DNA of 10,664 nt from a virus, in the UHGV virus genome UHGV-1833545, one strand, 5' to 3'. A program made the position numbers. How positions within the stretch are numbered: position 1 is the first letter of the stretch; the number at the start of each line of letters is the position of its first letter. This document shows positions 1 through 6,000 of this stretch, piece by piece.

Positions 1-3000
1 TCTCATATTCCTATCGCCATGCCGTGGGGCATGGATGGGGCAAAGTCCGATAATTTCTGGTTCAACATAGCAATCTGATCGCTGCTGCTGTCGGCCATCC
101 AGGCGCCGTAAACATTGAAAACCATCTGGGCGCTGGAGTGCCCCATTTGGCTGGCAATGAAACTCGGATTGGCCCCGGCAGACAGCGACCAGCAGGCGTA
201 AGTGTGTCTCGACTGATACGCCTTGCGGTGCCTTAAACCTGACCGTTTAAGCGCCGCATCCCATGAGTCACCAACTGAATCGGCTTTGTACAGGTAACCC
301 ACGCTGCCACTTTTTTTAACCAACTGAGGATTGAACACAAATGTACAGTCGTGAATGACCGTTCGGCCATACTCCCGCAGTTGTACCTCAACCTGATACT
401 GCCTGCCTAACCTGGTCATTTCCGCCTGGTTCCTCAAAGCGTCAATGGCTGGCTTGATCAGGTGAACGACCCTGTCGGTACCGGCTTCGGTTTTTGGTAG
501 AGTGAAATCACCGAGTTTCGTATAATTCCGGCGTATGGTCATCGTTCCAGTTTTCAGATCTATGTCTTCCCATGCGAGGGATACCAGCTCACCGTAGACG
601 TAATCCTGTGTATACCGCAATTGACCACAGGTTTTTCGTTTGCTGATGCTTGCAGGCATCTATGAAGCGAACGAATTCATCACGTGTGAGCGGATCTGGT
701 TCTATCCTGGCCCTCTTTAGCGGCTTGATGCCGTTAAACGGGTTTTCACTCACATAGCCATTATCAACAGCAAACTGAAACATACCCGCGATCGTGGTCA
801 TGTAGTAGTTTACCGTCACCACACTCAACCCTTTATCCCCCGCCAGCATATCCTTCCTGATATAGAGAAGCTCTTCTCTTGTCACAGACGAAACCAGCTT
901 ATTCGCGCCAACCCTCGGCAGCATGCTTCTAACCACCGATTCGTACCTGTTTATGGCATTAGCGCAGATCTCCATCCGTTTAAGCTCAAGCCATTTTTCA
1001 GACAGATCTTTTACGGTGATATCTTTCTTCCCGATGCCGAAAGTTTTCAGATTTGGCGAGTTGGGGAATTGGGCCGCATAGTCAAAGGTCCCCATGCGGA
1101 TAGCGAAACAAACTGACGTTCTCAGCTCCCCGGCCACCTTCCTGTTTTTAGCGGTGTCAGGGACACCGAGGTTTTCCCTGACACGCTTACCTTTAAAAAT
1201 GAACCATATGCGGAGTGACTTTCCGTGGTTCTCAACGCCCGTTGGGTATGATTCTTTACTCATTTATCCCTCCCGACGTCCAGGAGCGTTGCAAGTTTAC
1301 CTGTTTCATACCGCCCGATCACCCAATGGTTGCTTTTGCGCCTGAATCCATGCGTCTACCGCTTTGCGGTTGTACATGCATTCGCTGGTTGGCTTTGGCT
1401 CTCCTTCAGGGGAAACGTGCTTATACTCCCGGCCAAGCAGCCAAGATGATTTACGGGCCCGTGTAATGGTGCCGCGCTTCATCCCAGTGACCGCCATCAG
1501 CAAGTCCTCTGAAACCCATTCGTTTGGCTCGATCTGGATAATTGTCTGCATTTATCACCTCCGATGCTTACCGCGTAATTCCTCTTCTTCCTGACAGTCA
1601 GCACAGCGCTGGCATCCCGCCACCAGTTCCCTGCGCCGCTCGGGTATCTCTTCCCCGCAGTCGCGGCAGTGAGTAGCCGAAACTGCATGATGGTTGATGC
1701 GCATGTTCTGGATGGTCATTTCAAGCCGGCGTTCTGCCAGCTCGTTGGCCTAATCGATGAGTTCTGCGCTCATGCTGAAACTCCCTTAACTGCCAGAAAC
1801 GTAGCCATCGCTTTATCAACAATCTTCGAATTGTGGTATTTGCTGATTGCCCAGGTGATAGCGAATAGAATCCAACGGAAGTGACTGGTATACGTTTTAA
1901 ACGTCAGGCCTTCGCAGACATCCCAGGCGCTCCAACCAGCTGGCCAATCAGCGTCATAAACAGCCTGATAAGCCTCCCATTCGTTATTGAAGTCAGCTCG
2001 GCATAAGTCGCGGACGATTTCGCGTAACACTGCTTTGTCGCTATCCGGTGTATCGTCATCGTCGTCCCAGTCTTCATCCTCTTCTGTTTCAGCATCTTCA
2101 TCGTCCTTCAGGTAATCACTCAGAGACTCTTTCAGACTTTTGCAGAACGCGTCGTGGTCATACTCTTTCGCCAGCATTTCTCGTGCCGAACATCCCGCGC
2201 CAGCCTCCAGCTTTTCAGCCCAGTAATGGGTATTGATTCCACCCTCCCAGGCGCCAAAAAAGTCGAACATGTCCACGATGCGACTGAATGTCCAGGTTCC
2301 CATGTCGCCGGTTACGGTCAAGTAACCAGGCCATGTGATAACGTCGTAGTAGTAGCAAGATGTTCCCGGCTGCTGCATGCGCAGGTGGCGATACAGCCCA
2401 TCGTCACGGATGATTTCCAGACGGTGAAATGCGGTATCAATCAAAAATCGTGAGTCAATTTCGAAGAAGCTCATAACTCGACTGCCTTACTCAGCTTCTC
2501 GCCGAGCGCAAAGATGTAGTCGCGTAACTCTTCCAGTGACTGCGCTTCTGATTGCAGAATTTCACGATGGCAAAGTTCTTTCACCAGGTGCTCAAACTTG
2601 CTGTAATAACCGATACGGCTTAGTGTTTCTTTCCCTGCATTCTCACCTTCTTTGATAATTCCTCTTTCATTAAGAATCAGGTCGTGTTTGGTTCCGGTAA
2701 TAACGTATTTGCCGAGGTCGATGTTTAGCTTCATTGTTTTCATTGTTAATTCCTCAGTCATTACTGATAGCGCCATAGCGTGAGCGGTAATTACGCAGGC
2801 GCGGGTCAATTTCAGGGAAGTGGGTATATGTGGCTTTGCGGAATGGTCGGATTGATGTCTGGTAAATTCGCTCTCGTTCTTCTTTCTCTGCAAGCCATAT
2901 ACAGTGGCGAAATTCCTTTTCCTCTTTCGTTTCCTGCGGTAGAGACATTATTCGATCGTAGTTTTTTCTGAATTTATCCAGCACCTCCGATACGGAATTG

Positions 3001-6000
3001 CCGGAACAGCGGCGCGCGTCATCCGCACCATACAGAGGCGCTGGCATAATGGGAGCCTTATCTTCAGTAATCAGAAAGGAGGGTAATCGTTCTGGCTGTA
3101 ACCATAATCATCTGCATGATTCTGGCTTACGTTTTTAGAGCGATTGTCTTTATCTTTGAGGCTGGCAACCATGTTGGAGATAGTTTCTGGTTGCTTGCCT
3201 TCCGCCTTTTCTTTAAGGGTTTGACCTGTTTTTGCAATAAACGGGATGCGTATTTCCATCTGGTAGCTGTCTGCGCCAGTCTTTTTGTTTGTGGTTAATA
3301 CTTTCTGGAGCACTAACCCGATTTTCTTTCCATGAAATTCAGGAGCAACAAATTTACTGGCGGAAACCATATGTTGCGTTAATTGTCCAATCCCGGCACA
3401 CCCCATCATGGCGTGAACGACATTTGCGCCAAATTTGTTTTCCGTTCCGTCATTTTTCTGAACACAGACGCTAAGATATTGGATTTTACGTCCGTCGTCT
3501 GATTCGCCAGAAAACTCAATAAATTTGGCTCCTTTTTCTGATTGCTTTAGTTCTGCTTCAGTAATGGTAATGATATGAGCGCCAGTTTCGTTAATAAAAC
3601 CACCTTGCCCTGCGGTCAGAGCTGCTTCTTCGTTATAAGTAAAAATCACGTTGCTCATGCGGCGTTTTCCTTAATTTGATGAACATTATTGATGCCGTAG
3701 TAATCACAAACAGTGGCATCGACGAAAGAGAGATCGTTATCAATCTCATTGGAGTCAAACATTCCCATTGGGGATTTAACAGTGTCTGCACCGTTGTTTT
3801 TCGTGGTGAAAAAGAACTGGTCATCACGGGTAAGGGTGCGAAGAACTATAGTAAACATGCCTTCGACAGTGATTTTTTCGTCCAGCATTTTGCCGATAGT
3901 CTTCATTTTCACGCGCCCCATAGGGGTTTCTTCGGTGTGTGCAAGAAAATAGACTCTCAGGTCATCAGGTGCATCCTGTGCAGCCTTAATCACCTCCCAT
4001 GCGTGGCGGCCTATCTCAGTAAATTTATCAAACGATTTTTCTTCTGAGCGGCGCATAAACTCATTGCTCATCACATACTGGAAGTCATCAACAATAACGA
4101 TTCTTTTCCCGTATTCGTGAGCACGCTTAATTACGGCAACTATTACGTCCCATTTGTCAGTGGTAACTACGGTTCCTTTTTTTGCTCTGGCATCCCATGC
4201 CATTCTTTTGATTTAAATGGTAGCGGCTTGCCTATTGGTTTTATAAGTATTGCTTCCTCTGGATTGATATTTCTCATGCTGGTTGATTTTCCGGTGCCAG
4301 ATTCACCGAGTATTAATGTTGCAGTTCCCATAATTTTCCTCAGAATGGTAATTCGGATGGGGATGAAAGAAACTTGCGCTCATTCATGCGCTCTCTTTGC
4401 GCCTGCCATAAGCAAAGTTGTTTCTTTGATTTATCTCCCGCTTTACGCCAGTAACGAGCCTCAGCAATGTGATACTCTCTTTTTAATCGACTTAACTCTG
4501 GAGTTTTCGCCAGCTCTACCGGAATCATTTTGACCTCCATTTTCTGTAGGCTTCGACGGCCTCACGAAACATCTTTTCATCGCCAATAAAAGTGGCGATA
4601 GTGAATTTAGTCTGGATAGCCATAAGTGTTTTATCCATTTTTGGGAACTCCTGGCTGATTAAGTACGTCGATGAGTCGTTTCCATCCGTCACGTAATTTG
4701 CGGGTGATTCGTTCAAGTAAAGATTCGGAAGGGCAGCCAGCAACAGGCCACCCTGCAATGGCATATTGCATGGTGTGCTCCTTATTTATACATAACGAAA
4801 AACGCCTCGAGTGAAGCGTTATTGGTATGCATATAAAAAGGCCCTCACACTGGAGGGCAAAGAAGATTTCCAATAATCAGAACAAGTCGGCTCCTGTTTA
4901 GTTACGAGCGACATTGCTCCGTGTATTCACTCGTTGGAATGAATACACAGTGCAGTGTTTATTCTGTTATTTATGCCAAAAATAAAGGCCACTATCAGGC
5001 AGCTTTGTTGTTCTGTTAACCAAGTTCTCTGGCAATCATTGCCGTCGTTCGTATTGCCCATTTATCGACATATTTCCCATCTTCCATTACAGGAAACATT
5101 TCTTCAGGCTTAACCATGCATTCCGATTGCAGCTTGCATCCATTGCATCGCTTGAATTGTCCACACCATTGATTTTTATCAATAGTCGTAGTCATACGGA
5201 TAGTCCTGGTATTGTTCCATCACATCCTGCGGATGCTCTTCGAACTCTTCAAATTCTTCTTCCATATATCACCTCAAATAAGTGGTTTGCTGCCTAATTT
5301 CATTTTCTGGCGACCAACACAAGTCACACCCATTTCACTGCGTGGCTTGCTGTACCATGTGCGCTGATTCTTGCGCTCAATACGTTGCAGGTTGCTTTCA
5401 ATCTGTTCGTGGTATTCAGCCAGCACTGTAAGGTCTATCGGATTCAGTGCGCTTTCTACTCGTGATTTCGGTTTGCGATTCAGCGAGAGAATAGGGCGGT
5501 TAACTGGTTTTGCGCTTACCCCAACCAACAGGGGATTTGCTGCTTTCCATTGAGCCTGTTTCTCTGCGCGACGTTCGCGGCGGCGTGTTTGTGCATCCAT
5601 CTGGATTCTCCTGTCAGTTAGCTTTGAGTAACGCTCCGTGATGCTTATCTCCACGGTTGCTGTCTTGCAGCTGCATTTCGCGCTACTCAAAGCCTTCTGC
5701 TTTGAATGCTGCCCTTCTTCAGGGCTAAATTTTTAAGAGCATCACCTTCATGGTGGTTAGTACGTCCTGCTGATGGCTAAATAGTACGATTTGTACTTTA
5801 TAGAGTCAATACAAAATGTTCTAAATATAATTAGTTTTTTATAACGCTTTGTATTTAATGGGTTTATATTTTGGAAAAAGAAAACCCGACGCTAAGGTCG
5901 GGTTATTGTTGTGTGTTTTAGAGTTGTGAGGCTGTTAACTAAATGTCTCTTCAGGCCACTGGCTGGCGATAACTTTCCCTACTACGGAACAGCTATCATT

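Follow-up and report, generated by a model that had tools for sequence, protein, structure and literature searches.

An acidic PHROG 4657 protein encoded beside a DUF5405 gene and an Abc2 gene in the early region of a lambdoid prophage

The window analyzed here, a stretch of 10,664 nucleotides (nt) from the virus genome UHGV-1833545, corresponds to a lambdoid prophage's immunity and early region. [quoted passage not shown] The 234-aa protein is, by its profile match, a member of PHROG 4657, and it is tentatively proposed to be an accessory of phage recombination or DNA-end metabolism because its distant relatives repeatedly sit inside phage recombination modules. The 97-aa protein is almost certainly Abc2, the product of the terminal gene of a Sak4-SSB-Abc2 recombination module of the HK620 type (SSB, single-stranded DNA-binding protein), and the 90-aa protein is placed by family search in DUF5405, the family of phage P2 Orf83 and Sf6 gp24. 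An earlier note on this DNA had described the three ORFs as carrying no recognisable motif and had suggested that they serve host takeover or anti-defence, with the 234-aa product as a DNA-mimic anti-restriction protein. The ORFs lie where that note had placed them, but two of the three do belong to recognisable families; its observation was largely right and its interpretation is partly supported, for a reason other than the one it gave. All three ORFs are genuine coding genes because their ratios of non-synonymous to synonymous substitution (dN/dS) show purifying selection: the 234-aa gene has a value of 0.04 when compared with Klebsiella phage Chronis, and the 90-aa and 97-aa genes have values of 0.05–0.17 and 0.14–0.43, respectively.

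The PHROG 4657 family and its gene neighbourhood

The 234-aa protein (1770–2474, minus strand) matched PHROG 4657, a family listed as of 'unknown function', at 5.8e-69, with residues 2–225 aligned to positions 5–219 of the 221 in the profile. Scans against Pfam, NCBIfam and PADLOC gave no match for this protein, and the family is without a Pfam model; the weak Pfam matches (E ≤ 1; e.g., Nse4 and CobT) seen across 41 family members were rejected as scattered low-complexity noise. No sequence or fold relative was found among solved structures, a structure search of BFVD returned only uncharacterised phage proteins, and a literature search for phrog_4657 yielded no papers. The word-indexed search found 708 close homologues, from Enterobacterales, and an exhaustive profile search found 2,648 clusters at 50% identity with E ≤ 1e-3, with 1,135 at E ≤ 1e-30. 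Members detected with tblastn came from phages of Klebsiella, Morganella, Providencia, Vibrio, Ralstonia, Sinorhizobium, Mycobacterium, Arthrobacter and Gordonia, and all of them are annotated as 'hypothetical protein'. PHROG 4657 spans phages of both Proteobacteria and Actinobacteria: gp31 of Klebsiella phage Chronis is 97% identical to the 234-aa protein, and gp63 of Mycobacterium phage Dorothy is an actinophage member, the conserved core being shared with the actinophage proteins. The family was present on 30 of 72,556 plasmids, 29 of these 30 being non-mobilizable, and a role in the plasmid leading region was rejected on account of this scarcity, conjugative plasmids in particular being almost devoid of the family.

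The AlphaFold2 model of the 234-aa protein predicts an N-terminal five-stranded sheet with helices, an acidic linker and a C-terminal helical half; the models of the two uncharacterised ORFs were confident, with predicted local distance difference test (pLDDT) values of 77 and 90. Residues R29, T47, G56, D57, F63, R65, D68, M69, F73, Y84, W85, K88, W201 and A205 were invariant among relatives of 29–49% identity, those up to K88 falling in the N-terminal half and the last two in the C-terminal helical half. A C-terminal transmembrane helix was considered for residues 197–233 and rejected, as the hydrophobic run is of about 11 consecutive residues with charged flanks and the segment is modelled as a long helix. 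Additional domains were searched for in the 10 longest of 150 listed representatives, of which only P0316 (275 aa) had a recognisable one, a C-terminal Lar_restr_allev zinc-ribbon (9.7e-08). This may reflect either a genuine fusion or read-through in gene calling, and one instance was judged too little to build on.

The gene neighbourhood of the family was investigated in two sets of IMG/VR sequences, a close set of 80 relatives of at least 73% identity and a distant set of 80 loci whose products are 40–59% identical to a distant family member, with neighbouring ORFs clustered and scanned against Pfam. In the close set the gene was always near the int end of the prophage, with a TraR-like gene downstream in 52 of 80 (directly ATGA-coupled in the closest relatives) and a DUF5405 gene preceding it in 15 of 80. 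Within E. coli, a block of abc2, DUF5405, the 234-aa gene, traR, xis and int was found joined to recombination modules of either the Erf or the Sak4 type. Neither neighbour could be taken as a fixed partner gene, as TraR adjacency was confined to the close relatives and DUF5405 to the 15 loci mentioned.

In the distant set, genes for RdgC (23 of 80 loci), YqaJ exonuclease (22), KTSC (9), DUF5131 (9), Erf (7), C5 methylase (7), RecT (6) and SSB (6) were detected near the family gene, and at least one recombination gene lay within 3 kb on the same strand in 37 of the 80 loci, a proximity count taken without a matched control. A recurring order of RecT or Erf, YqaJ, in some cases KTSC, the family member and RdgC was apparent. 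In 31 records of cluster F1 mycobacteriophages the family gene directly follows a gene annotated as 'RecA-like DNA recombinase' (Sak4-type), and other actinophage and Morganella members lie among methylase, exonuclease and resolvase genes. The usual place of PHROG 4657 is between a YqaJ-type exonuclease or single-strand annealing protein (SSAP) and RdgC, or directly after a Sak4-type recombinase. The mycobacteriophages of the cytotoxicity screens, Girr and NormanBulbieJr, were not among the 31 records with an F1 homologue.

It should also be noted that a KTSC-domain protein of about 235 aa, with the KTSC domain at its N-terminus, is encoded directly upstream of the PHROG 4657 gene in nine of the distant loci, usually between the YqaJ exonuclease gene and the family gene. 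This protein is a possible second uncharacterised member of those recombination modules.

As an accessory of recombination, the 234-aa protein would bind either DNA itself or a partner that bacteria of different phyla have in common, and its acidic linker would act as a flexible tether or an autoinhibitory pseudo-substrate and not as a rigid DNA mimic. For the family as a whole it is possible, though doubtful, that PHROG 4657 is an unrecognised and widespread component of phage general-recombination modules, a new kind of recombination mediator or of host-nuclease modulator built from a conserved two-domain core and an acidic pseudo-substrate linker. A number of points weigh against such a role. 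The function of the 234-aa protein is read solely from the genes around it, genes for DNA transactions abound in early-left operons in any case, and 43 of the 80 distant loci had no recognised recombination gene nearby. Near-duplicate IMG/VR loci are present (e.g., L095 and L097, L100 and L109), so that the counts overstate the number of independent events. The neighbours also vary, both in the type of SSAP and in the presence of methylase, DUF5131 and HNH genes, there is no fold relative that would give a biochemical handle on the protein, and the family is missing from the module members given in a recent survey of lambdoid Rec modules (PMC12315714).

The acidic tract and DNA mimicry

The acidic tract KDDEDAETEEDEDWDDDDDTPDSD (residues 123–146; 2037–2108, minus strand) has aspartate or glutamate at 17 of its 24 positions. 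The earlier note was correct in reporting it, with an extent of 2037–2105 that falls slightly short of the one found here. In the predicted structure of the 234-aa protein the tract is the least confident part, with pLDDT below 50 at residues 125–135 and values of 46–48 in the blocks covering residues 121–140. Across 44 diverse relatives the corresponding linker is 11–42 residues long, with a net charge between +3 and −16 and no conserved sequence. The linker of the window protein stands at the extreme of this range (32 aa and a net charge of −16, against medians of 22 aa and −6), its clade having the longest and most acidic linker in the sample, and all of the invariant residues of the family lie outside the tract. 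The tract is thus predicted to be a disordered linker of variable length between the N-terminal sheet half and the C-terminal helical half. Acidity also extends beyond the linker: the whole 234-aa protein has an isoelectric point (pI) of 4.4 and a net charge of −24, and the 44 relatives have pI values of 4.3–5.6 (median 4.77) and a median net charge of −18. The acidity is real and is loosely kept as composition, but the tract is no evidence of DNA mimicry.

The reading advanced by the earlier note, in which the 234-aa protein is an acidic mimic of DNA or another nucleic acid that acts early in infection as a decoy for a restriction complex or nuclease of the host, is considered unlikely. Strong acidity is a property that a mimic must have, though one far from sufficient, and here both the protein and its family are acidic, the linker carrying a net negative charge in the majority of the 44 members. 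Its gene lies in an early-left operon within a mosaic accessory region, DNA methyltransferase genes adjoin the family gene in several phages, and in P0316 the protein is fused to a Lar restriction-alleviation domain, although no other such case was seen in the 10 longest representatives, which were the ones scanned. Known DNA mimics use a rigid array of charge. The 234-aa protein resembles T7 Ocr, ArdA, T7 gp5.9 and lambda Gam in being acidic overall and early, but these display a rigid surface array, whereas its acidic residues are concentrated in a linker which is predicted to be disordered and is conserved in neither length nor sequence. The protein resembled no solved protein and no known mimic in either sequence or fold, and no PADLOC defence-system model matched any of the three proteins. 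Counter-defence genes are usually patchy in distribution and of fast turnover; the core of PHROG 4657 is conserved across phyla and the dN/dS of the 234-aa gene is 0.04, a pattern unlike the usual one for counter-defence. The near absence of the family from conjugative plasmids also speaks against mimicry, as does the presence in the window of Ral and Abc2. The anti-restriction role suggested for the 234-aa protein is therefore not upheld by its disordered and unconserved tract, by the position of the invariant residues, by PADLOC or by the plasmid data.

The ral gene (5016–5195, minus strand) is, by its Pfam match, the recognisable anti-restriction gene of the window. Its 59-aa product matched PF11058 at 4.4e-44 and spans positions 1–59 of the 66 in the profile.

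Abc2, the DUF5405 protein and the TraR-like gene

The identification of the 97-aa protein (abc2, 2754–3047, minus strand) as Abc2 is based on a match over all of its 97 residues to the Pfam family Anti-RecBCD_p2 (PF11043; 5.6e-63, 209.6 bits against a cut-off of 25), together with matches to PHROG 656 (7.7e-55) and to the P22 Abc2 chains of PDB entries 8b1t and 8b1u (2.8e-57, approximately 90% identity). The protein agrees with P22 Abc2 and with HkaJ of HK620 in length, in the end-to-end match and in its place at the end of a recombination module, and HK620 also shares the order Sak4-SSB-Abc2. The DNA from 2740 through cIII is 97.8% identical to HK620 (hkaJ–hkaL). The upstream neighbour of abc2, ssb (3071–3658, minus strand) is of the HK620 type (HkaK family), with matches to PHROG 743 at 8.6e-66 and to hkaK of HK620, and upstream of it lies sak4 (3655–4331, minus strand), which encodes a Sak4-type recombinase (PHROG 2872 at 8.2e-84) and is broken. 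The abc2 gene thus closes the recombination module, after sak4 and ssb as in HK620, and in sister prophages it follows Erf modules.

The structure of P22 Abc2 on RecBCD has been solved by cryo-electron microscopy (8b1t and 8b1u), and the Sak4-SSB-Abc2 module of HK620 has been dissected experimentally, including the function of its SSB (PMC5928155). Abc2 binds RecC and redirects RecBCD (PMC9836394; PMC5928155), and is thought to steer the products of RecBCD toward the phage recombinase; it also recruits the host protein PpiB, probably via Pro68, which is proposed to occupy the PpiB active site (PMC9836394). Pro68 is kept in the window protein (within IRPFRK, as in 8b1t_A). By homology the window Abc2 would likewise bind RecC and alter RecBCD. 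It differs from P22 Abc2 by nine or ten substitutions, most of them within the C-terminal third, a part that shows disorder in the P22 structure, and unlike in P22 there is no abc1 or erf partner in the window, where the cognate sak4 is frameshifted. The description of this ORF in the earlier note as undescribed does not hold, given its clear homology to the characterised Abc2. Host takeover, which the same note had proposed, is borne out to the extent that this gene is concerned, albeit as a function already characterised.

The 90-aa protein (2471–2743, minus strand; 87 aa from a second methionine) matched DUF5405 (PF17399) with 26.8 bits against a gathering score of 21.6 (E 7.2e-06) and PHROG 154 at 1.8e-30. 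It is modelled as a small fold of four strands and two helices. Homologues were found in 166 phage records, with tblastn reaching P2, 186 and Sf6. Sf6 gp24, annotated as similar to P2 Orf83, is 80% identical to the 90-aa protein, and in both Sf6 and HK446 the DUF5405 gene directly follows abc2 as it does in the window. P2 Orf83 is 36.5% identical, of the same size and also encoded in an early operon. The window allele is recombinant, the N-terminal two-thirds being of the E. coli/Sf6 type and the last 22 residues of the Klebsiella type. DUF5405 genes in general lie in early operons beside replication or recombination genes, often with a TraR/DksA-like gene adjoining. No papers were found in literature searches for DUF5405/PF17399 and for PHROG 154, and the titles and abstracts of the literature on P2 orf82 and orf83 held nothing functional on orf83.

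In annotations derived from PHROG, the label 'replication initiation protein' is widely attached to DUF5405 proteins (e.g., NC_070904.1 and NC_030919.1). A length of 90 aa lends it no support, and neither a Rep-type Pfam domain nor a fold relative in the PDB was found for the 90-aa protein. In P2 the DUF5405 gene precedes a gene for a protein of 761 aa, which is presumably gene A, for the initiator of replication, and the label of PHROG 154 looks like a mislabel, bled from this large neighbour.

The gene downstream of the 234-aa gene encodes a TraR/DksA-like zinc-finger protein (1555–1773, minus strand; Pfam zf-dskA_traR at 3e-10) of the lambda Orf73/P2 Orf82 family. In P2 (L164, 2280–2776) orf83 is ATGA-coupled to traR (orf82), and a DksA-like gene adjoins DUF5405 in many P2-like phages. 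The linkage of DUF5405 and TraR recurs in unrelated types of phage, namely the P2-like phages and the lambdoid block described here, where the two genes flank the 234-aa gene; in P2 the DUF5405 gene lies between traR and the large downstream gene, whereas in the window the 234-aa gene separates it from traR.

This arrangement raises the alternative that DUF5405, the 234-aa protein and the TraR-like protein form a module of the lambda exo–xis type, acting on host physiology or transcription, or on the lysis–lysogeny decision, with or through the RNA-polymerase-binding TraR homologue and not on DNA. Two papers place orf73, a TraR homologue, in lambda's exo–xis region and describe effects of this region on lysogenisation and induction (PMC9239242; PMC3824215). 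The window genes occupy the same place on the map, flanked by the recombination genes and xis; a TraR/Orf73 homologue is present among them, they are transcribed early, and like the lambda genes they appear to be non-essential. By Pfam, where DUF5405 was the only family matched, no relation of the 90-aa and 234-aa proteins to orf60a, orf61, orf63, ea22 or ea8.5 of lambda was detected; it was not checked that Pfam has a model for each of these, and no direct comparison was made. The equivalence to the lambda ea/b2 position claimed by the earlier note is accordingly correct for the exo–xis ('ea') region, with mosaic joints flanking the genes, but not for b2.

Such a module would gain from the frequency and coupling of the downstream TraR-like gene in the close relatives, and from the coupling and adjacency of DUF5405 to traR or DksA-like genes in P2 and the P2-like phages. 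The linkage of TraR to the 234-aa gene is, however, limited to sequences of at least 73% identity, where shared ancestry can explain it; no TraR or DksA gene was found among the immediate neighbours in the 75 distant loci scanned, and DUF5405 precedes the 234-aa gene in a minority of even the close relatives. In addition, the 234-aa gene is intact in the two sequences in which traR carries an amber codon (the window and L170), which argues that the 234-aa protein is independent of TraR. The module is on these grounds judged improbable, and the recombination-accessory reading of the 234-aa protein is preferred.

Operon layout, lesions and mosaic joints

The early-left operon runs on the minus strand from N (5274–5690) through ral, cIII, kil and an hkaM-like gene (4340–4540), kil being located between cIII and the hkaM-like gene, and continues in the order sak4, ssb, abc2, DUF5405, the 234-aa gene, traR, xis (1306–1551) and int (3–1263), the last being broken. 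The only Rfam match of the window was the cIII thermoregulator RNA (Lambda_thermo, RF01804; 4726–4784, minus strand; 88.5 bits). A gap of 23 nt separates the SSB stop codon (3071–3073) from the start of the 97-aa ORF (3047), as the earlier note had it. A 10-nt spacer (GGAATTAACA) lies between the 97-aa and 90-aa genes, which are not joined by the ATGA overlap that had been claimed for them. Such an overlap is shared by the DUF5405 stop codon and the start of the 234-aa gene (2471–2474, minus strand; GAGTTATGAGC), and that at 1770–1773 (minus strand) connects the 234-aa stop codon with the TraR-like gene, but only with its ancestral start, the frame from which is interrupted. Between sak4 and xis there are six consecutive junctions, and ATGA overlaps occur at three of them; this coupling is the norm for a phage early operon and carries no special signal here.

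Searches of both strands between 1200 and 4900 gave no sigma-70-like promoter, against 4.7 expected, and no terminator-like site on the minus strand was detected inside 1770–3047. This would fit read-through from pL under N antitermination. The abc2, DUF5405 and 234-aa genes would then be co-transcribed with the recombination genes, the last two being translationally coupled as judged from the overlap.

Three lesions were detected near the interval. In int, an insertion of 1 nt near position 596 relative to E. coli BY63 splits the gene into ORFs 3–659 and 589–1263 (minus strand), although the integrase is intact, at 419 aa, in every relative examined. The traR frame from 1773 contains TAG at 1750–1752 (Q8*), where 28 of 28 relatives have CAG. 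The open ORF (1555–1719, 54 aa) starts 50 nt downstream, whereas the relatives encode a TraR of 72 aa from the ancestral ATG. The amber codon falls inside an ExxDxA motif, which the remaining ORF lacks and which corresponds to the N-terminal DxxDxA motif found to be critical for the function of TraR and Orf73 (PMC9239242). The same amber allele is present in L170 (GCA_046223885.1), the one assembly read at this site, which indicates an allele that occurs naturally and is no sequencing error. The 99.87%-identical L170 has one gap in its match to 1–3050, presumed to be the site of the int lesion. In sak4, of which HK620 and BY63 have an intact copy of 681 nt, a 4-nt deletion (GCCA) near 4199 relative to BY63 gives ORFs 3655–4203 and 4167–4331 (minus strand), the latter encoding the Walker-A N-terminus that is thereby parted from the rest. 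Taken together, the lesions in int, traR and sak4 suggest a decaying prophage.

The +1 frameshift in int, the traR amber codon and the sak4 deletion could be taken to mean that the two uncharacterised ORFs are themselves non-functional, either as filler or as remnants that decay along with a defective prophage. Both are nevertheless intact and nearly identical in many genomes, with dN/dS values of 0.04–0.17, confident structural models and families conserved across many phage lineages. The exact 234-aa protein is present in many assemblies, including the E. coli BY63 chromosome, and is listed in 346 blocks of the collection. The data on selection and conservation exclude this explanation, which is effectively refuted and was given a negligible probability.

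The interval is bounded by mosaic joints. Similarity to HK620 starts at 2740, and that to Sf6 and HK446 covers 2540/2555–2760, which places one joint at 2740–2760, and similarity to phage Chronis ends exactly at the start codon of the 234-aa gene (2474/2475). From position 1 to approximately 3050–3090, that is from int to abc2, the window is 99.3–99.9% identical to E. coli prophages (L167–L172), which carry different upstream recombination modules, Erf or other. Prophages with the exact 234-aa protein adjoin DUF72, MAPEG and two methyltransferase genes, a flank that was read as the yecE-yecN-cmoA-cmoB locus of E. coli.

Two further genes of the window lie on the plus strand. A replication O-like protein (7632–8579; Pfam Phage_rep_O on residues 20–132) contains a repetitive insert rich in alanine and histidine (…AHEAAQTTAHDAAHDEASNGAAFSAHAAHESAHEAAQTTAHHEQ…), and the DNA repeats underlying this insert may be iterons or an origin. 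A homing-endonuclease-like gene with HNH_3 and AP2 domains (10031–10642) follows a gene for a DnaB-type helicase.

The interval highlighted by the earlier note is for the most part ordinary, with a known hijacker of RecBCD and members of two catalogued families that recur as identical copies in many E. coli genomes. The misleading label of DUF5405 and PHROG 154 as 'replication initiation protein' is corrected by this analysis. What is worth carrying forward is PHROG 4657, which is among the larger phage families without a Pfam model, is tied by position to recombination genes and is found in phages of two phyla. Phage Rec modules are widely used as recombineering tools and are triggers or targets of RecBCD-linked immunity. 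If the 234-aa protein is indeed a recombination accessory or a nuclease modulator, PHROG 4657 would add a component to these modules.

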